Shown: positions 3,433 to 64,000 of the stretch, piece after piece | How the letters are laid out: each line of letters begins with the position of its first letter | How positions within the stretch are numbered: the stretch's first letter is position 1 | Origin: Bacteroides sp. | Lineage (GTDB): Bacteria > Bacteroidota > Bacteroidia > Bacteroidales > SM23-62 | Length of the DNA stretch: 64,000 nt | Assembly (NCBI GenBank): GCA_011053095.1 | Contig: DRHS01000127.1 | Span: 27,035-91,034, forward strand | Reading direction: 5' to 3' | Translations under genes and position numbers: made by a program | The notes under the pieces: model-generated | Seen by the model: the letters and a program-made list of their open reading frames with translations, nothing else | Told to the model about the DNA's origin: nothing | Database searches by the model: none

Positions 3433-4473
3433 ATGAACAAAACAGGTGTCGGACTTGCTTCCTTTGGGCTGTCAGGTCAGGTATTTCACGGGCCACTTAT
3501 TAAAGTGAATCCCTCATTTAAGATAAGAACCATACTGGAACGAAGCCGGAATATTTCAGAAAAGCACTTTCCGGATGCCCGGATTGTAAGAACATTCAAG
3601 GAATTAACTGAAGATAATAATATTGATCTCATAATTGTAAACACACCTGATCCTTATCATTACGAGATGACACTGGAAGCTCTACTGGCCGGCAAATCTG
3701 TTATTGTGGAAAAGCCTTTTGTACAGGATAGCAGGAAGGGACGGGAACTAATTGACCTGGCAAATAAGAAAGGCCTGTTACTGAGTGTATTTCAAAACAG
3801 GAGGTGGGACGGGGATTTCCTGACCATTCAAAAAATCATTGAAGAGGAACGGCTGGGAAGGCTGGTCGAATATGAAGCACATTTTGACCGTTTCCGAAAT
3901 CATATCCAGGAAAATTCATGGAAAGAAACACCGGGATCAGGCAGCATATTGTACAACCTTGGATCCCACCTTATCGACCAGACCATGGTATTGTTCGGCA
4001 AACCGGATAATGTATTTGCTGATATCAGGTCCATGCGTACTGATTCTTCCGTCGATGACGCATTTACAATACTGATGGCATACACCGGGGTTAAGGTTAC
4101 ACTAAAAGCAAGTTACCTTGTAAAGGAGGCGGGTCCAAGGTTTTACCTCCACGGTACCCATGGATCCTATCTTAAGCACGGAATCGATCCACAGGAGGAT
4201 GCACTTAAGGCAGGTGAATTGCCAGGGGGTGAGGACTGGGGAAAAGAGAAGGAATCGGAGTGGGGACAAATGAATACGGAAGTAAGGGGAAATCCCTTCA
4301 ACGAAAAATACGAGACAATCCCGGGCCGGTATACAGCCTACTATGAAGACATTGCCAGGGCTTTGAAAGAAGGAACCCCTCCCCTGGTCACAGCAGAGCA
4401 GGCCAACCTTGTCATCAGGGTTATTGAAGCTGCAAAGGAAAGTAATAAAACAGGAAAGAGGATCCCCGTTTAA
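3433..4473 (+). CDS. Gfo/Idh/MocA family oxidoreductase (cytoplasmic)
   Basis: N-terminal GLASFGLSGQVFH Rossmann fold, VEKPF motif, 346 aa. Confidence 0.9.
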   Translation: MNKTGVGLASFGLSGQVFHGPLIKVNPSFKIRTILERSRNISEKHFPDARIVRTFKELTEDNNIDLIIVNTPDPYHYEMTLEALLAGKSVIVEKPFVQDSRKGRELIDLANKKGLLLSVFQNRRWDGDFLTIQKIIEEERLGRLVEYEAHFDRFRNHIQENSWKETPGSGSILYNLGSHLIDQTMVLFGKPDNVFADIRSMRTDSSVDDAFTILMAYTGVKVTLKASYLVKEAGPRFYLHGTHGSYLKHGIDPQEDALKAGELPGGEDWGKEKESEWGQMNTEVRGNPFNEKYETIPGRYTAYYEDIARALKEGTPPLVTAEQANLVIRVIEAAKESNKTGKRIPV

Positions 4474-4529
4474 TTCAGCAAGATCCTCTTCCGTATTGGT
4501 GAAATCCACCGGATTGTCTGGCGGCTTGT

Positions 4530-5639
4530 TTATTTCTGTGAAAATTCTTCGAAAATCACCTCCATTTGTTCTGCACTTATATGAGACCCAGATCTTATAT
4601 GGAGACGATGTTTGAAAATCATTGATTCTCCTGGCATAAGTATAACCTGTACTGGTTCTGCGGTCTCATCGAAAGCTTTAGCACCAAGATTATTAACTGA
4701 GAAGAGCCCATACCCCCTTGCATGCCAGTGTGATGGATAGCCGGAATTATCAGGATGGTCTAATATGCAAATACTAATGTCTTCCTCAGCTATGTTCGAT
4801 GAGAGGCTTATCCAACGTGCCTTCTTTCCCCATGCATCCTCTCCTTCAAAGCCGTCAGAATTCAGGTAGTGTCCGTTTACACCTTCATTATCAAGCTTCT
4901 TAACTTCCTCAGCAATGCCATTTGCATCTGTAAAAACCTGAGGTTCATCTGAGGGATGTTCAAATTCCCTTGCGACCCGGATAGCAAACATTCCTTCCTT
5001 GTTATCTGTAAATACGACTTCATCTTCCTGGGCTGTAAGCTGTGTAATCCTGTCTATGGTACGGGTATTCTCATCTCCGCTGAATTCCAGGATTGTATTT
5101 TCCTGCAGCAGGGTATGCCATGACCCGTCTTCTGCAGGCACCTGCCAGTCTGCCGCTACCTCAAGAATACCCACAGATTCCCGGCTTTCGGCACGTTTTA
5201 CTCCCCTGTGAAGTACCCTGCCATAATGGGCTTTCCTTTCTGCAGGAATTGCATTGGAATTATTCCAGAAATCAAAGCCATTGACGTCTCCGAAATTGAA
5301 CCAGACCCCCACATGGTGAGGATGGTCAACCCTCTCTCCTGCCTTTGGTTCCAGGGGGTATCCACGGGTAACAGCGGTTCCTTCAGATGTACGAATGGGA
5401 AAAAGAACCGGCTTTTCAAGATCAGAAGGATAAATGTAAGAAGTAAATATATCTCCGTCTATAAATACATCCACCTTGTTTTCCTCACGAAAATCAACCA
5501 GGATTACTCCCTTTTTCAGGGGAGTTGCAGTATCCTGGCTTTCAGCAGCTGGTTTTTGACCCGACTTGCAGGATGACATGAGTACTACCAATGTAAGTGA
5601 TACCCTCAGAAAAGTTTTTAATAAAACATTTGTTTGCAT
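4530..5639 (-). CDS. PmoA-like / DUF6807 family lipoprotein
   Basis: Lipoprotein signal (LVVLMSSC). DHPHHVGVWFNFGDVNG motif characteristic of the PmoA-like DUF6807 family. Confidence 0.75.
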   Translation of the reverse strand: MQTNVLLKTFLRVSLTLVVLMSSCKSGQKPAAESQDTATPLKKGVILVDFREENKVDVFIDGDIFTSYIYPSDLEKPVLFPIRTSEGTAVTRGYPLEPKAGERVDHPHHVGVWFNFGDVNGFDFWNNSNAIPAERKAHYGRVLHRGVKRAESRESVGILEVAADWQVPAEDGSWHTLLQENTILEFSGDENTRTIDRITQLTAQEDEVVFTDNKEGMFAIRVAREFEHPSDEPQVFTDANGIAEEVKKLDNEGVNGHYLNSDGFEGEDAWGKKARWISLSSNIAEEDISICILDHPDNSGYPSHWHARGYGLFSVNNLGAKAFDETAEPVQVILMPGESMIFKHRLHIRSGSHISAEQMEVIFEEFSQK

Positions 5640-9826: not shown

Positions 9827-11755
9827 CTATTGCTTTACAATCTTAGCAGTATAGGCCTCTTTTCCGTCCTCAACCTGCAGAAGATAAAGTCCCTGTACAA
9901 GATTTTGGGTATACATGGTTACCTTTTGAGAAGAACTCTGGATTTTGTTTATAATCTTTCCACTCAGATCACTCAGAGTTATTACCCTCTCTCCCGCTCC
10001 TGATTGAAATACAATATTAAGTTCGTCTCCGAAAGGATTCGGATTAACACTGAAATGACCATTCGTAATCACTTTCCTGACTACCAGCGATCTGTCAAGA
10101 ACCCAGTTTTCAGGATCCGGAACAAGCGATACAACCGCTTCCCTGAAAGGCATTGAAATCCTCATTGAAGGCTTGTCGATAATGGTTCTGAAAACCGAGT
10201 CAGATCCCGATTCAGATTCTATGCTGAAATCCATGCTTGTCCTGAAGAAAGGCGTCTCAACTGAGCTGCCTGTCTGGCTGACATCAATAATCAGGCTGTC
10301 GCTGGTCTGCCACCAGGTATAATTGAAGGAAGGAAATCCCTGGCCATAATACCACTGGTCAAAAAACCATCCATAATCTGATCCTGAAACCTCATTCAGC
10401 ACATTCCTAAAATCATCACCGGTGGCAACACTGTCAGAAAACTGCTCAGTAAAAGTTCTGAGTAAATCAAAGAAAAGGTTGTCATCATTAAGCTCATACC
10501 GGATCATATGAAGAAGTGAGGCTCCTTTTTTATAGGACATGGCCATGCTAAAAATCCTGAACTCATTTGTTGCATCTTCCTCCGGTATATATACGCTTCC
10601 TTCCGGCTCTGACATTGCCCACTCATGAGCGTTTGCCATCCACATATCAGCCTCCTGTCTGGATTTTAAATATTCCTGGGCAAGATATTCACCATAAGAA
10701 GCAAATCCCTCGTTGATCCATATATCCTGCCAGCTGGCACATGTAACATTATCACCATACCATTGGTGAGTGAGCTCATGAGCCACAAGGTTAAACCGGA
10801 AACTTGACAATGAAGTCATAGTCTGATGTTCCATTCCTCCACCCATAGGAGCAAGGCAGTGACCGTATTTCTCCTTCCAGAAAGGATAATCCGAAAAGAT
10901 ATCCGAATACAGATGAATCATATCAGCTGTCTCATCGATATCATCCTTATTCTGTTCAAGATATCCTGGTACATTGTAGATATAATTCTGGATTAGTATC
11001 GAATCCTTAATGGATGCAGGTTTTGTATAAATACTGTAATCCTGGTAATTCGATACAGAAAGTGAAAGCAGATAATATGCCGTAGGATACAGGGTCTTCC
11101 AGTGGAACCGCAGTTCGTTTTCATCCAGGCTGTCAATCTCAACCAGTTTCCCATTCGATCCGGCCATTAGTCCCTCAGCCACAGTAAGCCAGACATCAGC
11201 AGAATCAGCTTTATCATTCAGCACCTGTTTGCATACAAACCAATCGCGGGCGGCAAATGGCTCTGAGAGAGTGTATGTAACCCGGGTTCCCCATTGGGAA
11301 TCTGTCTTGTTCGAAATCCCGGAAAAGAATCCTCCCTTTTCCCCGCTTCCATTGTAATAAACTCTTACCACAAACAAATCATCCATAAGCACAGGTGAAG
11401 CCGGTGAGAATTTAATAAGATCATGTTCGTGTGTGAATGAACTGAGCTTCTGTCCACCAAAAAAAACGGAATCCACCTCCATAACGGATTTAAGCTCAAA
11501 TACCAGTTCCTGTATCTGCTCAAGTGCGGTTGCCTGTATATCGGTAAATCCGCTTATGTAAGTATTCGAATCAGTTACATTCAGAGAAATACCATAATGG
11601 CTTACATCATATTTCAGAAGAGCAGAATCCTGAACATGCGTGGGAACGCTTTTCAAATTAAAGGCCCTATGACCGGAGCAGTCAAGATCTGTTGTCTCTG
11701 CAAGGCATAAAATCGGCAGCAGTGCAATTATTGCAGGCAGGAAATATCTCTTCAT
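9827..11755 (-). CDS. secreted M1 family metallopeptidase with T9SS C-terminal sorting domain
   Basis: Signal peptide. GGMEHQT (GxMEN-like). HELTHQWYGD...WINEGFASYGE (HExxH-18-E). C-terminal ~80 aa resemble a Por/T9SS CTD (NPNPFGDELNIVF...LYLLQV). Confidence 0.9.
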   Translation of the reverse strand: MKRYFLPAIIALLPILCLAETTDLDCSGHRAFNLKSVPTHVQDSALLKYDVSHYGISLNVTDSNTYISGFTDIQATALEQIQELVFELKSVMEVDSVFFGGQKLSSFTHEHDLIKFSPASPVLMDDLFVVRVYYNGSGEKGGFFSGISNKTDSQWGTRVTYTLSEPFAARDWFVCKQVLNDKADSADVWLTVAEGLMAGSNGKLVEIDSLDENELRFHWKTLYPTAYYLLSLSVSNYQDYSIYTKPASIKDSILIQNYIYNVPGYLEQNKDDIDETADMIHLYSDIFSDYPFWKEKYGHCLAPMGGGMEHQTMTSLSSFRFNLVAHELTHQWYGDNVTCASWQDIWINEGFASYGEYLAQEYLKSRQEADMWMANAHEWAMSEPEGSVYIPEEDATNEFRIFSMAMSYKKGASLLHMIRYELNDDNLFFDLLRTFTEQFSDSVATGDDFRNVLNEVSGSDYGWFFDQWYYGQGFPSFNYTWWQTSDSLIIDVSQTGSSVETPFFRTSMDFSIESESGSDSVFRTIIDKPSMRISMPFREAVVSLVPDPENWVLDRSLVVRKVITNGHFSVNPNPFGDELNIVFQSGAGERVITLSDLSGKIINKIQSSSQKVTMYTQNLVQGLYLLQVEDGKEAYTAKIVKQ

Positions 11756-11787
11756 CTAACTCTAAATTCGGGTCAAAGTTAATAAAA

Positions 11788-12756
11788 CTAAAGGAGGGAT
11801 GGGGCTTTGATCAGGTGGTTTTTTCCATTGCTGTGAAGGGCATACTCGAAACCTTCCCTCAGGCAATATCCCGCAGTGTTGCCGGATTTGTTCAGTGCTA
11901 TATATCCTACCTGATGTTCTGAATCCAGAGGTACTTTTCTGCGGATGCGCTCCAGAGCTTCTCTGCATGCTTCTTCGGGACCTGCTCCGTTTCTCATAAG
12001 TTCCACAACCAGAAAGGAGCCAAGTGTTTTCATAACCAGTTCGCCCCATCCGGTAGCTGCCGCTCCTCCTACCTCATTATCAACATAAAGCCCTGCACCG
12101 ATTATGGGAGAGTCCCCTACCCTCCCCGGCATCTTGAATCCCAGTCCACTCGTAGTACAGGCTCCTGCGATATCTCCGGATTTATCCATTCCAACCAAGC
12201 CAATTGTATCATGACCTACAGGGGATAAATTATTCTTCAGGGCTTTCTCTTTTTCCCATGCTTTTTTTGCTCTCGGGGTAAGCAGGTTCTCCCTGGGAAA
12301 TCCCTCTTTTTCTGCAAATTTTTGAGCACCCTCACCAACCAGCATAACATGAGGTGTTTTCTCCATAACTTTTCTCGCGACTGAGATCGGATGCATAATT
12401 TCTTTAATACAGGCTACCGAACCTGCATCACCTGAGGGATCCATGATGCATGCATCCAGTGTAACATTGCCATCTGCATCCGGCAATCCCCCGTATCCGA
12501 CTGATCCTATATCCGGATCTGCCTCGCTAATCCTTACTCCTGCTTCCACAGCATCAAGGATGGAACCTCCGGATAATAATGACTGATAGGCCGCTTCATT
12601 GGCCGGGATGCCATGATCCCAGGTAGAGATAATCACCGGACTGCCTGGGGCGGCAGACAAGCTCCCCGGTGCAACGGAAGATTTAACATTGTAAGGCAGG
12701 GTAACACCCAGGCTTGCTGCCAGTGAGGATAGAAGAAATTTTCTCCGGTCTATCAT
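11788..12756 (-). CDS. N4-(beta-N-acetylglucosaminyl)-L-asparaginase / isoaspartyl peptidase (Ntn hydrolase)
   Basis: Tat-like signal (DRRKFLLSSLAASLG). HDTIGLVGMD autoprocessing/nucleophile Thr motif. GAGLY and GAAATGWGE motifs. Confidence 0.85.
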   Translation of the reverse strand: MIDRRKFLLSSLAASLGVTLPYNVKSSVAPGSLSAAPGSPVIISTWDHGIPANEAAYQSLLSGGSILDAVEAGVRISEADPDIGSVGYGGLPDADGNVTLDACIMDPSGDAGSVACIKEIMHPISVARKVMEKTPHVMLVGEGAQKFAEKEGFPRENLLTPRAKKAWEKEKALKNNLSPVGHDTIGLVGMDKSGDIAGACTTSGLGFKMPGRVGDSPIIGAGLYVDNEVGGAAATGWGELVMKTLGSFLVVELMRNGAGPEEACREALERIRRKVPLDSEHQVGYIALNKSGNTAGYCLREGFEYALHSNGKNHLIKAPSLL

Positions 12757-53538: not shown

Positions 53539-55213
53539 ATTCTCCATTCTGATCTCTCTCATTATGCTTACCGCCTGCAAGGCAGAAACTTCCGAAGAAA
53601 GAAAGGAAGTTAATATTCTTCTTATCGTTGCAGACGATCTGGGATTCACAGACCTGGGATGTTTCGGCAGCGAGATAAAAACTCCCAACCTGGATGCCCT
53701 GGCAAGTCAGGGGATAATCAATACTGCATTTTACACCTCCCCTACCTGTTCACCAACAAGAGCTATGCTGCTTACAGGTGTAGATAATCACAGGAACGGT
53801 TATGGTACAATGGGTAGCCTCGCTGAGAACCAGAAAGGCCTGCGTGGTTATGAAGGTTATCTGAACTTTGATATTGTGACCTTCCCTGAATTGTTACAGG
53901 AAAGGGGATATCATACCTCCGTGGCCGGCAAATGGCACCTTGGATACCCGGTTTCAGACAGCAGTTTCTGGCCCTACCGAAGGGGATTCGATCGTTCCTT
54001 TTGCCTCCTTCAGGGAGGAGCCGGACATTTTGCCGATAAACAACTACTATTCTCCAATTACCAGAAAACAATCTATGTTGAAAATGAACGGATTGTCAGG
54101 TACCTGCCTGCAAATTTTTATTCAAGCGATTACTACAGCTCGAAGGCCATTGAATTCATCAATGAGAGTCAGGAACTCAATAAACCTTTTTTCTCATACC
54201 TGGGATTCACCGCTCCGCACTGGCCGCTTCAGGCTCCTGACCATTACATCGATCTTTATAGGGGATTTTATGAGGAGGGTTATGAGATCCTTGCTGAACT
54301 AAGACTGGAAAATGCCAGGCAACTCGGGATTGTATCAGAGTATGCCAGATTGCCATCCCTGTCTCCAAATGTGCCTCCCTGGAACTCATTGACTGAACAA
54401 CAACAAAGAGAATCAGCACGCATTATGGAGGTATATGCAGCCATGGTCGAATGCCTGGATGCAAACATTGGAAAGGTTATTTCTCATCTAAAAGCAATCG
54501 GGGAATATGATAACACGCTGATTGTTTTCATGTCTGACAACGGAGCGGAAGGCAATAACATTTCTACGGTAAGAGATGCCGGGGAATGGATTGCTGAGAA
54601 CTTTGATAACAGTCTTGAAAATATCGGCAGAAAGGATTCCTATGTTTACACGGGACCAGGTTGGGCACAGGCCAGCACAGTACCTTTCAAATGGTATAAA
54701 GCCTTTGCTACTGAGGGAGGAGTCAGGAGTCCGGCGATAATCACTTATCCCCGATGGAAACATAATTCGGGAATTATCAATGACGACTACATCTCGGTAA
54801 TGGATCTTGCCCCGACATTCCTGGAATTGACAGCTTCGGAGCATCCTGGGACAGAATACAAGGGAAGGGAAATTTATTCAATGGATGGGATATCGCTGGT
54901 TAACTGGTTGAAGGGAAATGAAGAGGCAGCTCATTCTCCTGAAGAAGCTCATTGCTGGGAATTGTACGGGAGAAGAGGAGTACTCAAGGGAGTCTGGAAA
55001 GCGGAATGGCTGGAGTCCCCATACGGAAATGATTCCTGGGAATTATTTAATCTTGAAAGGGATCCCGGTGAACAAACCGATCTGGCCCTGAAAAATCCTG
55101 ATAAACTGAAAGAATTGGTAGCAGAGTGGGAAAAATATGCCTCAGATTATGGAATAGTACTGCCCAATGAGAAGGTGTCATATGCCTCAGAAGATTTCTG
55201 GTTGGAACAATAA
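53516..55213 (+). CDS. Cys-type arylsulfatase
   Basis: Start chosen at the ATG giving lipoprotein signal (…LIMLTAC). VADDLGFTDLG metal site and CSPTRAMLLTG formylglycine motif. Confidence 0.9.
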   Translation: MKIKMAFRFSILISLIMLTACKAETSEERKEVNILLIVADDLGFTDLGCFGSEIKTPNLDALASQGIINTAFYTSPTCSPTRAMLLTGVDNHRNGYGTMGSLAENQKGLRGYEGYLNFDIVTFPELLQERGYHTSVAGKWHLGYPVSDSSFWPYRRGFDRSFCLLQGGAGHFADKQLLFSNYQKTIYVENERIVRYLPANFYSSDYYSSKAIEFINESQELNKPFFSYLGFTAPHWPLQAPDHYIDLYRGFYEEGYEILAELRLENARQLGIVSEYARLPSLSPNVPPWNSLTEQQQRESARIMEVYAAMVECLDANIGKVISHLKAIGEYDNTLIVFMSDNGAEGNNISTVRDAGEWIAENFDNSLENIGRKDSYVYTGPGWAQASTVPFKWYKAFATEGGVRSPAIITYPRWKHNSGIINDDYISVMDLAPTFLELTASEHPGTEYKGREIYSMDGISLVNWLKGNEEAAHSPEEAHCWELYGRRGVLKGVWKAEWLESPYGNDSWELFNLERDPGEQTDLALKNPDKLKELVAEWEKYASDYGIVLPNEKVSYASEDFWLEQ

Positions 55214-55467
55214 TCCTTTATAAAAACAATCAACTATGGGATCAAATCCAATCAATCTGACCACCTGGCTGATCAGATCTGACATCCCTGCATACTCTTA
55301 AAAAGCCGTTAAATGGTTCAAATGGGAGGCACCTCCTGCAAGGTTCCCTTTGCATCAGACTATATTAAGAAAGTGGAAGTGAGAGGGTCAATCGGTAAGA
55401 AGAAGAAAATCGCTCGCTGCTAGGATAATGTGGCCACCGCATAATCGGCTATACCGAATACTGAGCG

Positions 55468-57435
55468 TTATTCATTTCCTGAGGATTTTCCATCCTCTTC
55501 CTTATCCATAGCTTCATAGATTTCCCTTACCTCTTCACGCAGGGTTTCTGTATCCCATGCATCATCGCTTTCATGCAATACATGGTCTTTTTCTGTAAGA
55601 AGAATATTGTCAAGCTGTTGTGAATACCGGCGAACTTCATTTATATATTTCTTTTTATCGCTTCCCCAGAGAGTGTGCAACTGGTCCATCATCTCATTGT
55701 CATGGTAGCGGAAAGTGCGGGCAGCACGGCTAGCCTGGTAACGGCTGAATCCAAGATCAGACAAAACATTCATGCCCAGGTCAACCGATGCATCATAGGT
55801 TTCGCGTTTCACTCCGGTTATACCAAGGTCCTTAAGTTCAAAGGAATGCCTCACATCTACAGCCCTGGCATATATTTTAAGTGATGGATAGCTTTTTTGC
55901 ACCTGTTCAACGATATTACTGATCTGTTCCCTGTCATCAACAGCCACGATCATTACTTTTGCCTTCTCGAGTCCCGCAAACTCCAATAGATCGGGCCTGT
56001 TGGCGTCTCCATAATAGACCTTGAAACCGAACTTTCTAAGAAACCGAATGTTGTCAGGATTATTATCAAGGACGGTAGCCTCTATACCGTTTGCTCTCAG
56101 GAACCTTCCAATCACCACTCCGAATCTACCGAATCCTGCGATGATCACCTGGTTCTCTTGTCCGGAGATTTCGTCGGGCTGCCGATCTGCATCGGCCTTA
56201 ACAAACATAGGTTGAACAAATCTGTCATTAATAATTAGCAATAAGGGCGTAATCAGCATAGAGAGGGCTACAACAATCAGCATCACGCCGGAAACGGATT
56301 CCGGAAGAATGGTGTTTTGGTTGGAAAATGAGATCAATACAAAAGCGAATTCCCCGGTTTGCGCAAGCGCAAAGGAGAACAGTATTTCCTGTCCGTTACG
56401 CATCCTGAAAAACCGGCCCAGCACCAGGAGTACAATGAACTTAACTGCAATCAGCAGTCCCAGGAGTCCAACTACAGTCCCGGGTTGAGTAACAAGAATA
56501 TTAAAATCAATGCTTGCTCCTACAGCAATAAAGAACAAACCCAGGAGGAGTCCCTTGAAAGGTTCGATATCCGATTCAAGTTCATGCCGGTATTCATTAT
56601 CAGCAAGTACCACTCCCGCAAGAAAAGTACCGAGTGCAGGTGAAAGTCCCACGGCATCCATGGCCATTGCTATACCTATTACAAGAAGCAGTGCGGTTGC
56701 CGTAAATATCTCACGCAATCCTGTTCGTGCTATAAAACGGAAAAGGTAGCGGGCGAGAAATCTACCTGAAAAAATAATGAGGGCTACCAGTCCTATAATG
56801 ATCAGCAACTGCTGCCAGCCGTCAAGGTCTGCAATACCAGTCTGATGAGCTGCCTCTGTAGATTGGTGGACAGCATCAACCACATGAGGATCTGCGCTAC
56901 TGCCAGAAACAACCTGGCCTGCCATCAGGGGTAGAATCGCCAGGATTGGTATGACGGCAATATCCTGAAATAACAGAACTGAGAAACTCCCCTCCCCTGC
57001 CTGTGTTTTCATTAATCCTTTTTCAGCCAGGGTTTGTAAAACGATTGCTGTGGATGACATAGAGAAGATAAGTCCAATCGTAATGGATTGAACCAGGTTC
57101 ATTCCGAAAAAGAGAGATATTCCGGCAACAATCACAGTGGTCATTGCCATCTGCAATCCACCGAGTCCAAATATTGACCGGCGCAGGCTCCAGAGCAGGG
57201 ACGGCTTTACTTCGAGTCCGATCAGGAAAAGCATCATTACGACCCCGAATTCTGCAAAGTGCATGATGTCAGTACCCTCCTCCCCGACAAGTTTCAGGAA
57301 ATATGGGCCAACAAGTACCCCGGCAAGCAGGTAACCCAGTACGGATCCCAGTCCAAGTCTCTTGGCAATTGGAACAGATATCACTGCTGCGGATAGGAAT
57401 ATTACTGCCTGGAAAAAGAATTCCTGTCCATGCAT
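55468..57435 (-). CDS. kefC: CPA2 family K+/H+ antiporter with C-terminal RCK/KTN domain (KefB/KefC-like)
   Basis: ~13 TM Na_H exchanger region, then IIAGFGRFG Rossmann (KTN) domain, 655 aa. Confidence 0.9.
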   Translation of the reverse strand: MHGQEFFFQAVIFLSAAVISVPIAKRLGLGSVLGYLLAGVLVGPYFLKLVGEEGTDIMHFAEFGVVMMLFLIGLEVKPSLLWSLRRSIFGLGGLQMAMTTVIVAGISLFFGMNLVQSITIGLIFSMSSTAIVLQTLAEKGLMKTQAGEGSFSVLLFQDIAVIPILAILPLMAGQVVSGSSADPHVVDAVHQSTEAAHQTGIADLDGWQQLLIIIGLVALIIFSGRFLARYLFRFIARTGLREIFTATALLLVIGIAMAMDAVGLSPALGTFLAGVVLADNEYRHELESDIEPFKGLLLGLFFIAVGASIDFNILVTQPGTVVGLLGLLIAVKFIVLLVLGRFFRMRNGQEILFSFALAQTGEFAFVLISFSNQNTILPESVSGVMLIVVALSMLITPLLLIINDRFVQPMFVKADADRQPDEISGQENQVIIAGFGRFGVVIGRFLRANGIEATVLDNNPDNIRFLRKFGFKVYYGDANRPDLLEFAGLEKAKVMIVAVDDREQISNIVEQVQKSYPSLKIYARAVDVRHSFELKDLGITGVKRETYDASVDLGMNVLSDLGFSRYQASRAARTFRYHDNEMMDQLHTLWGSDKKKYINEVRRYSQQLDNILLTEKDHVLHESDDAWDTETLREEVREIYEAMDKEEDGKSSGNE

Positions 57436-61218: not shown

Positions 61219-61341
61219 GAAGCAGGGTTCATTGTAAAACTAAAGAACAAATATCATTTAAGATAGTTGTATAATTAAGGATTAGCGGGGTTTTTGTTAA
61301 TAATGTAAATTTTGATAATTTAATATGATTTCGTAATATTG

Positions 61342-61367: not shown

Positions 61368-62570
61368 ATGGCAACCGTAAAAATCGTCCTGTACGAGTCC
61401 AAAAAGCTTTCAAAGGGTAAATACCCTATTATGCTACGAATAACCACTCAGGGGACGCGAAAATACGTTTCATTGGGACATTCTGCCACATCCCAGGAAT
61501 GGGAGGAACTAAGAAACCCGGAAAATAACTCCAAACTGGCAAAGTTGATCCGAAAACGCCAGGCAGATGCAGACAAAATAATTGACCGTTATGAATATGA
61601 CGGGATTGAATTTACTGGTGACCAGTTTTATAATGAATGGGCCAGGAGGTTAAAGGGTACAATGACGGTGTTTAAGTTCTTCGATGAGCGGATACAATAC
61701 TTCAAAAAAAAGAAAAAACCCGGTAATGCAGCTGTATATACAACAACAAAGAACTGTTTATCTAAATTCAGAAAAAATAAGGATCTCCGATTTACAGATA
61801 TTACCCCTCAGTTCCTGAACAAATATAAAGACTACTTGGAAGATGAGCGGGGCATTTCGGGTAATACTATGAGTATATATCTGCGAACCCTGAGGGCGGT
61901 GTATAATGAAGCCATTGAACAGGGCCATGTTCACCGGGATCTTTACCCCTTTAGCAGACGCAAATTTAATATTTCTGAACTATCTGAGGAAACCGCTAAA
62001 CGGGCCTTAACTAAAGAAGAGATGCAAAAAATCAATTCTAAGGACCTTAAAGAACATCCCGAGTTAATCGATGCAAAAAATATCTTCATGTTCTCATTCT
62101 TTGCCCGTGGTATTCAGTTTTTTGACATAGCTCATCTTACCTGGGATCATATCCAGGGGGACCGCTTAAATTATAAACGCAAAAAAACAAAGGTTTACTT
62201 CAATGTCAAGATACAACCGGAAACCGGGAATATACTGGAGTATTTCAAACGAAAAAAGACAGGCAGTAACTTCATTTTTCCTATCCTGGACCACCGGATA
62301 CACAAAACCGAGCAGCAAAAGTTTGACCGTATTATTAGAGTAAGGAAACAGATAAACAAAAAACTCAAATTGCTGTCAGTGGTTGCGGATGTGAAACCCT
62401 TTACAACATATTGGGCCAGACATAGCTATGCAAGTATTCAGAAGTTCAACGGAACACCCGCCTCAATGATAAAAGAACTGTTAGGACATTCAACGGAACA
62501 GGTTACTCAGATATACCTAGATAAGTTCGGAAATGAAATGCTTGACTCATTGGATGAAAGCCTTATCTAG
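61368..62570 (+). CDS. int: site-specific tyrosine integrase (Bacteroidetes type with N-terminal arm-binding and SAM-like domains)
   Basis: N-terminus MATVKIVLYESKKLSKGKYPIMLRIT typical of the Bacteroidetes arm-binding domain. Catalytic region ARHSYAS...LGHSTEQVTQIYL (R, HxxR and Y elements). Confidence 0.9.
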   Translation: MATVKIVLYESKKLSKGKYPIMLRITTQGTRKYVSLGHSATSQEWEELRNPENNSKLAKLIRKRQADADKIIDRYEYDGIEFTGDQFYNEWARRLKGTMTVFKFFDERIQYFKKKKKPGNAAVYTTTKNCLSKFRKNKDLRFTDITPQFLNKYKDYLEDERGISGNTMSIYLRTLRAVYNEAIEQGHVHRDLYPFSRRKFNISELSEETAKRALTKEEMQKINSKDLKEHPELIDAKNIFMFSFFARGIQFFDIAHLTWDHIQGDRLNYKRKKTKVYFNVKIQPETGNILEYFKRKKTGSNFIFPILDHRIHKTEQQKFDRIIRVRKQINKKLKLLSVVADVKPFTTYWARHSYASIQKFNGTPASMIKELLGHSTEQVTQIYLDKFGNEMLDSLDESLI

Positions 62571-62620: not shown

Positions 62621-63259
62621 ATGGAATTTTACAATAAGGTTGAACAAGCAACGGTCAAACTTAATTACGATTACTATAAGGAAAATGGAGATATTACCCG
62701 CAGCAAAGACACGCAGGGGGTCATTGTTCAAAATGGCTATATTCTAACTGCTGCTCATTGTCTTGACTTGAACCAACTTAAAGATGCATACCAGGGGGAC
62801 TATTATCATATTTATATTAAAAATCAATACGAGAGTAATAAGTGTAGAGCGATTCCGATGGTTGTTGAACAAATGAGAGATATTGCAGTTCTAGGAAGAC
62901 CGGATAAAGATGACATAACAAATGAACATAAACATTTCGATGTATTTATAAACGAGGTTGAACCTCTGAGTATTAATACCGATTTCAAACTTGTTAATAA
63001 CCAGCCAGTGCATTGTTTTACACATACCGGAGAATGGATAAAGGGCAAAATTCTGTTTCCAGATAATGAAGACATGGGTTTTTTATTGGTTGAGTTTGAA
63101 AAGAAGTTTAAGGGCGGTACATCTGGGGGGCCAATTGTGAACGACTCAGGAGAATTAATGGCTGTTGTTTCAGGTGGTAACTATGATAATATGCATAATC
63201 CTTACATCTGTCGGTGTTTACCGCAATGGATACTGGAAAAGATTCTTAAGGAAGATTAG
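62621..63259 (+). CDS. cytoplasmic trypsin-fold serine protease (Trypsin_2-like)
   Basis: Triad motifs in order: LTAAHC (H46), RDIAVL (D87), GGTSGGPIV (S168). No signal peptide, 212 aa. Confidence 0.8.
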   Translation: MEFYNKVEQATVKLNYDYYKENGDITRSKDTQGVIVQNGYILTAAHCLDLNQLKDAYQGDYYHIYIKNQYESNKCRAIPMVVEQMRDIAVLGRPDKDDITNEHKHFDVFINEVEPLSINTDFKLVNNQPVHCFTHTGEWIKGKILFPDNEDMGFLLVEFEKKFKGGTSGGPIVNDSGELMAVVSGGNYDNMHNPYICRCLPQWILEKILKED

Positions 63260-63302: not shown

Positions 63303-64000
63303 ATGATTACTTATTTATTAGGAGCCGGGGCCAGCTACAATTGTATTCCTGTAGTTGGAAATTTTAAGCAAAGGGTTGATGGCCTGCTGAAATACATAAC
63401 CAAAACTTATGTGAATAGAACGGCAAAGAATGATATTAAAGACTATGAATCTTTTGCTGCTTTTCTAAAGGATTTCAATCGATTCTTTTCTTGGCTAATG
63501 AACGAGGAATCTGCGGATCTACTGGCAATGAAGCTCTACAAAAGTGAAAAATTCGAATTTTTTTATGAGACAAAAATTTGGTTGACATTAGTTATTTTAT
63601 TGTTTCAGTACTATCGACCGCACGACGCGAGATATGACAAATTCTTTGCAAATATTTATCAAGACTTTGATGGTCCAATAAGTAATATATCTCGACAAAT
63701 GGCTGTGATATCATGGAATTATGATATTCAGTTTGAAATTTCATATTCAGATTTTTTGGATAAAGGGGCTGTTATGAATACTAGGATGATTCAGGCTGAG
63801 CTTGATGTTTATCCAAGTTTTTCAAATAATGATTCATTTAGCAAATTCTCTATTACCAAGTTAAATGGATCGGCTATTGTACAAGACCACTCGTTATCAA
63901 ATGAAATGATTTTTGATATTCAGCAGTTAAATCGAGAACGCATAATCAAAGATGATAACCAACATGGTTTATTGCATCCTGAAGTAATTAATAATATTGT
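63303..64000 (+). CDS. SIR2-like (SIR2_2/ThsA-type NADase fold) protein, 5' partial (runs off window)
   Basis: My own translation from the ATG at 63303 stays open to 64000 (232+ codons). It is not in the ORF track because it is unterminated. LLGAGAS (aa 5-11), ISWNYDIQFE (N139) and TKLNGS (aa 185-190) parallel ThsA FAGAGLS / TTNYDRLIE / KMHGD. Confidence 0.6.
   Translation, partial: MITYLLGAGASYNCIPVVGNFKQRVDGLLKYITKTYVNRTAKNDIKDYESFAAFLKDFNRFFSWLMNEESADLLAMKLYKSEKFEFFYETKIWLTLVILLFQYYRPHDARYDKFFANIYQDFDGPISNISRQMAVISWNYDIQFEISYSDFLDKGAVMNTRMIQAELDVYPSFSNNDSFSKFSITKLNGSAIVQDHSLSNEMIFDIQQLNRERIIKDDNQHGLLHPEVINNI

Follow-up and report, generated by a model that had tools for sequence, protein, structure and literature searches.

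A SIR2-fold protein family, mostly of Bacteroidota, with asparagine in the catalytic-histidine column

Defense proteins of the sirtuin fold are currently seen as histidine-dependent NAD+ hydrolases (NADases), and both the Pfam SIR2_2 family and the PADLOC catalogues are built around that active site. Alanine mutants of ThsA at N112 and H152, and of FAM118B at N163 and H206, are inactive. In the Paenibacillus SIR2 protein solved as 8w9l, H212, N163, and D165 are the putative catalytic residues (PMC11472057). The subject of this report is a SIR2-fold gene at the end of a 64,000-nucleotide stretch of a Bacteroides sp. genome (GenBank assembly GCA_011053095.1, contig DRHS01000127.1, positions 27,035 to 91,034 of the forward strand), called the window below. 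Its product, P0001, carries asparagine (Asn188) in the column of the catalytic histidine, as do all aligned members of the unnamed family to which it belongs, referred to here as the Asn family.

A natural amide residue in the histidine column is already known from class M sirtuins (SirTM), in which an absolutely conserved glutamine, Gln137, replaces the catalytic histidine and contacts the 3'-hydroxyl of the ribose (PMC4518038). SirTM is a robust ADP-ribosyltransferase rather than a deacylase, and its Q137H variant is inactive (Rack et al. 2015, PMC4518038). Another single-gene point of comparison is AbiH of Lactococcus (PF14253), which encodes a predicted sirtuin-like protein of about 346 amino acids, is found on integrative elements, and has been proposed, without demonstration, to work by way of NAD+ (PMC13064643). 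Literature searches in a limited library, which leave novelty unproven, found no description of a SIR2 defense family with asparagine at the histidine position; a preprint on DARNA that was considered in this connection deals with a HEPN nuclease and is irrelevant.

The Asn family is most like the SIR2_2 or SIRim proteins, such as SIR2-HerA, the SIR2 domain of ThsA, DSR1/2, SIR2-APAZ, and Avs5, which have the same fold and supply its best structural matches. Also shared are the motif order (G-x-G-x-S, N-x-D, K-L-x-G-S, and I-G-Y-[S/G]), a helical lid after the first β-strand, the lack of a cysteine tetrad, and a defense or mobile context. Unlike SIRim proteins, Asn-family members invariably have asparagine at the catalytic histidine, score below the Pfam SIR2_2 gathering threshold, match no PADLOC SIR2 model, and lack HerA, TIR/ThsB, SLOG, Macro, APAZ/pAgo, STAND, or a DSR C-terminal domain, while having invariants of their own at D72, R110, Y111, W138, E145, W252/E253, N285, and D289. 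A first-pass annotation of the window, made from the letters without database searches, had compared the gene to ThsA, a likeness that proved too specific: unlike Thoeris ThsA, P0001 is a single-domain protein without SLOG or Macro domain, it matches no PADLOC model, and TIR genes are not among the recurrent neighbors of its family. The contrast with SIR2-HerA lies in the surroundings, which in the window are an integrase, a protease, and small open reading frames (ORFs), and HerA is likewise not among the recurrent neighbors.

The amide in the histidine column makes class M the best mechanistic precedent for the asparagine. Glutamine at this site, a classical sirtuin-type core, an operon with macrodomain, GcvH-L, and LplA2 genes, and a dedicated protein substrate are found on the class M side only. 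None of these operon genes occurs among the neighbors of the Asn family, and SirTM is absent from the top 50 Foldseek matches of P0001. From AbiH the family is set apart by Pfam profile, as PF14253 gave no match to the window protein at E values up to 10 and was not among the families shown for 114 Asn-family members at E values up to 1.

The SIR2 fold and the catalytic-histidine column

The reading frame starts at an ATG at position 63303 on the forward strand and is still open at the end of the window, 232 codons later. The full-length product has 360 amino acids and is identical to the window fragment over 232 residues; its gene ends at window-equivalent position 64385, about 385 bp beyond the window, and occupies positions 10001 to 11083 of Logan contig L001. 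P0001 is carried on two contigs, the identical protein comes from two assemblies, and its sole annotation is "hypothetical protein ENI20_08425 [Bacteroides sp.]." The start codon at 63303 is credible because the N terminus, MITYLLGAGAS, agrees with the family consensus. The last group of motifs, GYSFP followed by N285 and D289, falls beyond the end of the window.

Neither the 232-residue fragment nor full-length P0001 gave a significant match when scanned against Pfam, PADLOC, NCBIfam, and PHROGs. Among 114 homologues, aligned as A1, sub-threshold matches to Pfam SIR2_2 (PF13289) were present in 48, the best with an E value of 3.6e-5. Members that matched this profile when scanned individually scored 13 to 19 bits against a gathering cutoff of 24.5, and their matches began at the WNYD strand; P0001 itself had no match. 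When PDB sequences were searched with the family profile, the only matches were to calaxin and were spurious, so an intermediate family bearing the histidine was needed to reach solved structures.

This intermediate came from locus L049, which carries a canonical SIR2_2 gene with the motif KLHGS (Pfam, 34.5 bits against a cutoff of 24.5; PADLOC Aga_SIR2, 4.7e-16). The 83 homologues of the KLHGS protein were aligned as A3; they carry PF13289, and their invariants include N199, D201, K261-L-H263-G-S265, and G354-Y355. Comparison of A1 with A3 by hhalign gave a probability of 97.3% and an E value of 2.5e-11 over 292 columns, with the motifs in register: GAGAS paired with GSGFS, ISWNYD with HTLNHD, KLNGS with KLHGS, and IGYSFP with IGYGF. 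By sequence, A3 matches the solved SIR2-HerA sirtuins 8yhx (2.4e-13), 8w9l (1.8e-12), and 8j4u (5e-10), again with KLHGS aligned. Through this chain from A1 to A3 to 8w9l, residues N139, D141, and N188 of P0001 therefore correspond to N163, D165, and H212, and the same columns hold N112 and H152 of ThsA and N163 and H206 of FAM118B. The spacing of 49 amino acids between N139 and N188 is the same as that between N163 and H212 in 8w9l.

The AlphaFold2 (AF2) model of P0001, built on the 114 homologues, has a mean predicted local distance difference test (pLDDT) value of 87.3 and a predicted template modeling score (pTM) of 0.88, with a pLDDT of 94 for the block from residue 181 to 190. The model has the SIR2 strand order, with every motif placed directly after a strand: β1 (residues 2 to 6) leads into GAGAS, β2 (133 to 137) into WNYD, β3 (183 to 186) into the NG of KLNGS, and a later strand (273 to 277) into GYS. 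When the model was compared to the PDB with Foldseek, the top 50 matches were all SIR2 proteins, at template modeling (TM) scores of about 0.4 to 0.5. The best was the SIR2 subunit of SIR2-HerA from E. coli and Paenibacillus (E value of 1.5e-5, probability of 1.00), and other leading matches were Sir2Tm and the Avs5 SIR2-STAND protein; a Foldseek comparison to viral structures gave no significant match. P0001 is thus a SIR2-superfamily protein with Asn188 in the catalytic-histidine column. Among sirtuins it falls into the "immune" branch, the SIR2_2 or SIRim-like proteins that have a helical lid domain and no zinc module; A1 has no conserved cysteine column (at most 42 of 114 sequences at any one column) and hence no zinc-binding cysteine tetrad.

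The first-pass annotation had described a SIR2-like ORF with GAGAS, NYD, and KLNGS landmarks and with Asn188 where the catalytic histidine was expected. The landmark positions hold, hhalign and Foldseek confirm the resemblance, and Asn188 does align with the invariant histidine of A3 and with H212 of 8w9l. Its further suggestion, that the longer spacing between GAG and NYD reflects an insertion relative to ThsA, was not borne out. In the AF2 model, this interval of about 130 amino acids in P0001 consists of five helices spanning residues 18 to 121, and the matching interval is 172 amino acids in A3 and about 181 amino acids in the SIR2 protein of 8yhx. Because the spacing is within the range of other defense SIR2 domains, there is no special insertion to invoke. 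Defense sirtuins have a variable helical small domain (Bonhomme et al.), and residues 18 to 121 are this small, or lid, domain in P0001.

Asparagine 188 across the family

Asparagine occupies position 188 in all 114 sequences of A1, whose median pairwise identity is 31%, in 131 of 131 further representatives of clusters formed at 50% identity, and in 170 of 170 ORFs from genome, metagenome, and viral-contig loci; these three sets overlap. The invariants of A1 are G7, A8, G9, A10, S11, D72, R110, Y111, W138, N139, Y140, D141, N188, G189, N285, D289, and F341. In every further set N139, Y140, and D141 were again invariant, and W138 was replaced by tyrosine in one of 85 locus ORFs. The codon at position 188 is AAT in 138 cases and AAC in 32, and the use of both synonymous codons shows long-term purifying selection for asparagine. 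No other column of the family is a conserved histidine, the richest being position 68, which is histidine in 70% of sequences and glutamate in P0001. Asparagine in place of histidine is a selected family trait, neither an error nor a fresh mutation.

An exhaustive HMMER search over 1.84 billion representatives at 50% identity found 3,714 matches at E values of 1e-3 or lower, 2,632 at 1e-10 or lower, and 1,988 at 1e-30 or lower. The single-domain architecture is uniform, since the best 150 matches are all 320 to 378 amino acids long and align end to end. This large unnamed family is found mostly in Bacteroidota and travels on integrative elements, prophages, and defense islands. With one genome taken per species, relatives were present in 459 of 185,579 species, in a patchy distribution. 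The carriers are almost all Bacteroidota, joined by Ignavibacteria, Rhodothermia, and Balneola and by single metagenome-assembled genomes of Spirochaetota and Campylobacterales. Family copies are also present on 13 IMG/VR viral contigs and on three Leptospira LE1-like temperate phages (KF114879.1, KX656785.1, and KF114880.1), while a tblastn search of plasmids in PLSDB found none. With thousands of clusters spread over hundreds of Bacteroidota species, gut and marine lineages included, the family escapes the catalogues built around the histidine site.

The family member of the Leptospira phages (L086, 4001 to 5035, equal to positions 54798 to 55832 of KF114879.1) bears the annotation "hypothetical protein." YLNGS and GYT stand in it instead of KLNGS and GYS, and the remaining invariants that were checked are kept.

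Possible activity and competing explanations

The motifs of the NAD pocket are conserved in the family (GAGAS, N139-x-D141, and GYS...N...D), and we infer that P0001 still binds NAD+ and works as an effector, as opposed to an enzyme that has lost its activity. On balance, P0001 is probably an active, NAD+-consuming, stand-alone defense effector, with no commitment made here between NADase and transferase. As judged from the alignment, the amide of Asn188 would hydrogen-bond the 2'- and 3'-hydroxyls of the nicotinamide ribose, in the manner of Gln137 in SirTM, and would position this ribose for the release of nicotinamide. The ADP-ribose could then pass to water, in which case the protein would be an NADase that depletes NAD+, or to a macromolecular acceptor, in which case it would be an ADP-ribosyltransferase. 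Neither route would involve general-base chemistry by histidine, and one invariant acidic residue (E145, E253, or D72) possibly assists. A lid gates the pocket in SIR2-HerA and ThsA (PMC11472057), and the helical lid of P0001 probably shuts its pocket, which a phage cue or oligomerization would open, with infection aborted as a result. A more specific version, possible but doubtful, would make the family an "Asn-class" of sirtuins in which the amide stands in for the histidine general base and serves to transfer ADP-ribose to a macromolecule of phage or host, or to form a product from NAD+, instead of plain NAD+ hydrolysis. The family would then be a new one-gene anti-phage system, widespread in Bacteroidota and carried by temperate phages.

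Several points weigh against an active effector. Exchange of the histidine for alanine abolishes NADase activity in ThsA (H152A) and in SIRanc/FAM118B (H206A); with these canonical enzymes dead, loss of the histidine could mean lost catalysis. A contact of N188 with the ribose of NAD+ is derived from alignment, and SirTM provides an analogy only, being of a different sirtuin class, with glutamine rather than asparagine and with a conserved arginine partner. P0001 is recognized by no PADLOC, Pfam, or NCBIfam model, the defense role of the family rests on guilt by association, and six or seven loci from Flavobacteriaceae resemble inherited synteny, not a mobile island.

The main alternative is a pseudo-enzyme or sensor, in which the pocket would bind NAD+, ADP-ribose, or a signaling nucleotide without catalysis and the protein would regulate or scaffold, for example, adjoining restriction or other defense genes. 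A residue needed in ThsA and FAM118B is missing, conserved pocket motifs are what would be expected of a ligand-binding module, and the repeated embedding of the gene in type III restriction-modification (R-M) operons would fit a protein with a regulatory or accessory function. We nevertheless consider a sensor unlikely. About 90% of loci are without an R-M partner and no partner recurs, which would leave a sensor with no constant recipient for its signal, and no second (effector) domain is present in a 340-amino-acid protein. The strict polar and acidic invariants (D72, R110, Y111, E145, E253, N285, and D289) go beyond what binding needs and resemble an active site, and SirTM shows that an amide at the histidine position is compatible with catalysis. 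Less probable still is a two-gene module with the protease encoded just upstream, in which cleavage would activate the SIR2-fold protein or the two would act jointly as effectors. The two genes share a strand and are 43 bp apart, and no terminator was predicted in the gap; known defense systems have protease effector domains that this protease resembles, and at locus L044 a protease-domain protein is encoded directly downstream of the family gene. However, just 2 of 171 loci have a protease beside the family gene; the gene order is reversed between these two, and the architectures differ. Elsewhere the family has no partner, and in the window the two genes are possibly independent cargo of one island.

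That P0001 is not a SIR2 protein at all, being AbiH-like or some other Rossmann protein, or that its true catalytic histidine lies elsewhere, is highly improbable. P0001 lacks a Pfam SIR2_2 match, the family profile by sequence alone has no PDB match, and AbiH, at about 346 amino acids, is likewise a single protein that resembles SIR2 (PMC13064643). Set against this are the hhalign match, with motifs in register, to a SIR2_2 family validated by Pfam, the leading Foldseek matches, which are all SIR2 proteins, the lack of a conserved histidine column, and the absence of AbiH from the families shown for the A1 sequences. A sequencing error, or a recent CAT-to-AAT change that inactivated the enzyme in the source genome by turning histidine into asparagine, would take a single base, yet we give it practically no weight: it is excluded because asparagine is invariant across the whole family, the Leptospira phage copy included, and it is further opposed by the use of both AAT and AAC and by the identical protein from two assemblies. 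These results also settle much of what the first-pass annotation had put forward to account for Asn188. Of its four explanations, error and recent mutation fall away with the conservation seen in all three sets of homologues, and a divergent active site and a sensor pseudo-enzyme still stand; its two possible counterarguments, a catalytic histidine elsewhere and a non-SIR2 family such as AbiH, do not hold.

If P0001 is an active effector, as preferred here, the family would bring a second chemistry to the sirtuin-fold immune effectors, parallel to the SirTM ADP-ribosyltransferases, and would enlarge the thinly characterized defense repertoire of Bacteroidota by a compact system of one gene. 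An inactive family would instead be the first ligand sensor with a SIR2 fold to be widespread in defense islands.

Island context and neighboring genes

Features of the SIR2-fold gene and of the two genes preceding it, in window coordinates
Feature	Position	Strand	Basis
Tyrosine integrase, Bacteroidota-type (Arm-DNA-bind_5 / Phage_int_SAM_5 / Phage_integrase)	61368..62570	+	Domain matches
Stand-alone trypsin-like serine protease, 212 aa, 43 bp before SIR2-fold gene	62621..63259	+	Domain matches
SIR2-fold gene, first 232 codons of 360-aa single-domain P0001	63303..64000	+	ORF, AF2 model, Foldseek, hhalign
GAGAS (G7-S11), glycine-rich NAD-phosphate-binding loop after β1; family-invariant	63321..63335	+	Aligned to GSGFS of canonical SIR2_2 family
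Helical small domain of five helices (residues 18-121), inserted between β1 and β2	63354..63665	+	AF2 secondary structure
D72, family-specific invariant inside helical small domain	63516-63518	+	114-sequence alignment
R110-Y111, family-specific invariants inside helical small domain	63630-63635	+	114-sequence alignment
W138-N139-Y140-D141, N-x-D motif after β2; N139 = AAT 63717-63719	63714..63725	+	Alignments
K186-L-N188-G189-S190 after β3; N188 = AAT 63864-63866	63858..63872	+	Sequence, alignments

The gene for P0001 is the third of a low-GC island, after the integrase and protease genes. At about position 61300 the GC content drops from approximately 45% in the flanking chromosomal genes to 31 to 38% from the integrase gene onward (L001, 8000 to 12420), and this drop is the left boundary of an island acquired by horizontal transfer. 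Near the integrase there is no tRNA gene that could mark an attachment site and no obvious att repeat. Scans for sigma-70 promoters and intrinsic terminators around the SIR2-fold gene did no better than on shuffled sequence, with a tool that does not cover Bacteroidota promoters. The 212-amino-acid protease resembles the protease domains of the retron type XI reverse transcriptase (RT)-protease (RT-Protease_XI, 1.5e-11) and of Lamassu LmuA (1.2e-6). Neither an RT nor any other domain is attached to it, and it may be a remnant or may act as an effector by itself. Past the window end, two small ORFs lie on the opposite strand of L001, at 11376 to 11663 (95 amino acids) and 11676 to 12146 (156 amino acids), and neither had a match in PADLOC or in precomputed Pfam matches; the contig ends about 1.3 kb past the SIR2-fold gene.

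Neighboring genes were clustered for 85 loci and then for 171 loci. Neither set had a constant partner gene, and the pairing with a protease seen in the window is not general. This lack of a constant neighbor is consistent with a one-gene system, and by association the neighborhood pattern is that of a self-sufficient defense-island gene. Related integrases are present in 9 loci. In 12 of the 171 loci, the type III methylase gene, mod, is on the strand of the family gene and upstream of it by no more than two genes. The family gene stands between mod and res in three of the loci (L059, L077, and L154) and just after res in four (L018, L030, L088, and L169); in these operons it shares their strand and is separated by gaps of a few bases, which suggests cotranscription of the family gene and R-M genes at about 7% of loci. 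Components of type I, IIG, and IV R-M systems, mad2 and mad3 of MADS, and the DISARM methylase DrmMI were also identified nearby with PADLOC.

In seven loci of the Flavobacteriaceae type, the PADLOC candidate PDC-S50 (SLFN_AlbA_2/DUF5929) is encoded directly downstream of the family gene. These loci are marine (L013, L025, L031, L032, L081, L082, and L146), and the PDC-S50-like protein has about 377 amino acids, or 237 in L025. An SDR gene precedes the family gene in six of the seven, that is, in all those whose upstream gene was scanned (L146 was not). The SDR/PDC-S50 neighborhood could be a lineage-specific pairing or inherited synteny.

In Pedobacter frigiditerrae, 15 bp separate the end of the gene for Drt2 (DRT type 2; L003, 4426 to 5985) from the family gene downstream of it, and the two are probably adjacent one-gene defense systems. 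A retron or RT-protease link was considered for this upstream RT and rejected, as it is an ordinary Drt2 and an independent system. Both SIR2 types, KLHGS and Asn, share one island at L049, a Bacteroidota contig on which the histidine-bearing SIR2_2 gene (39 to 1067) and an Asn-family gene (4023 to 5009) lie about 3 kb apart.

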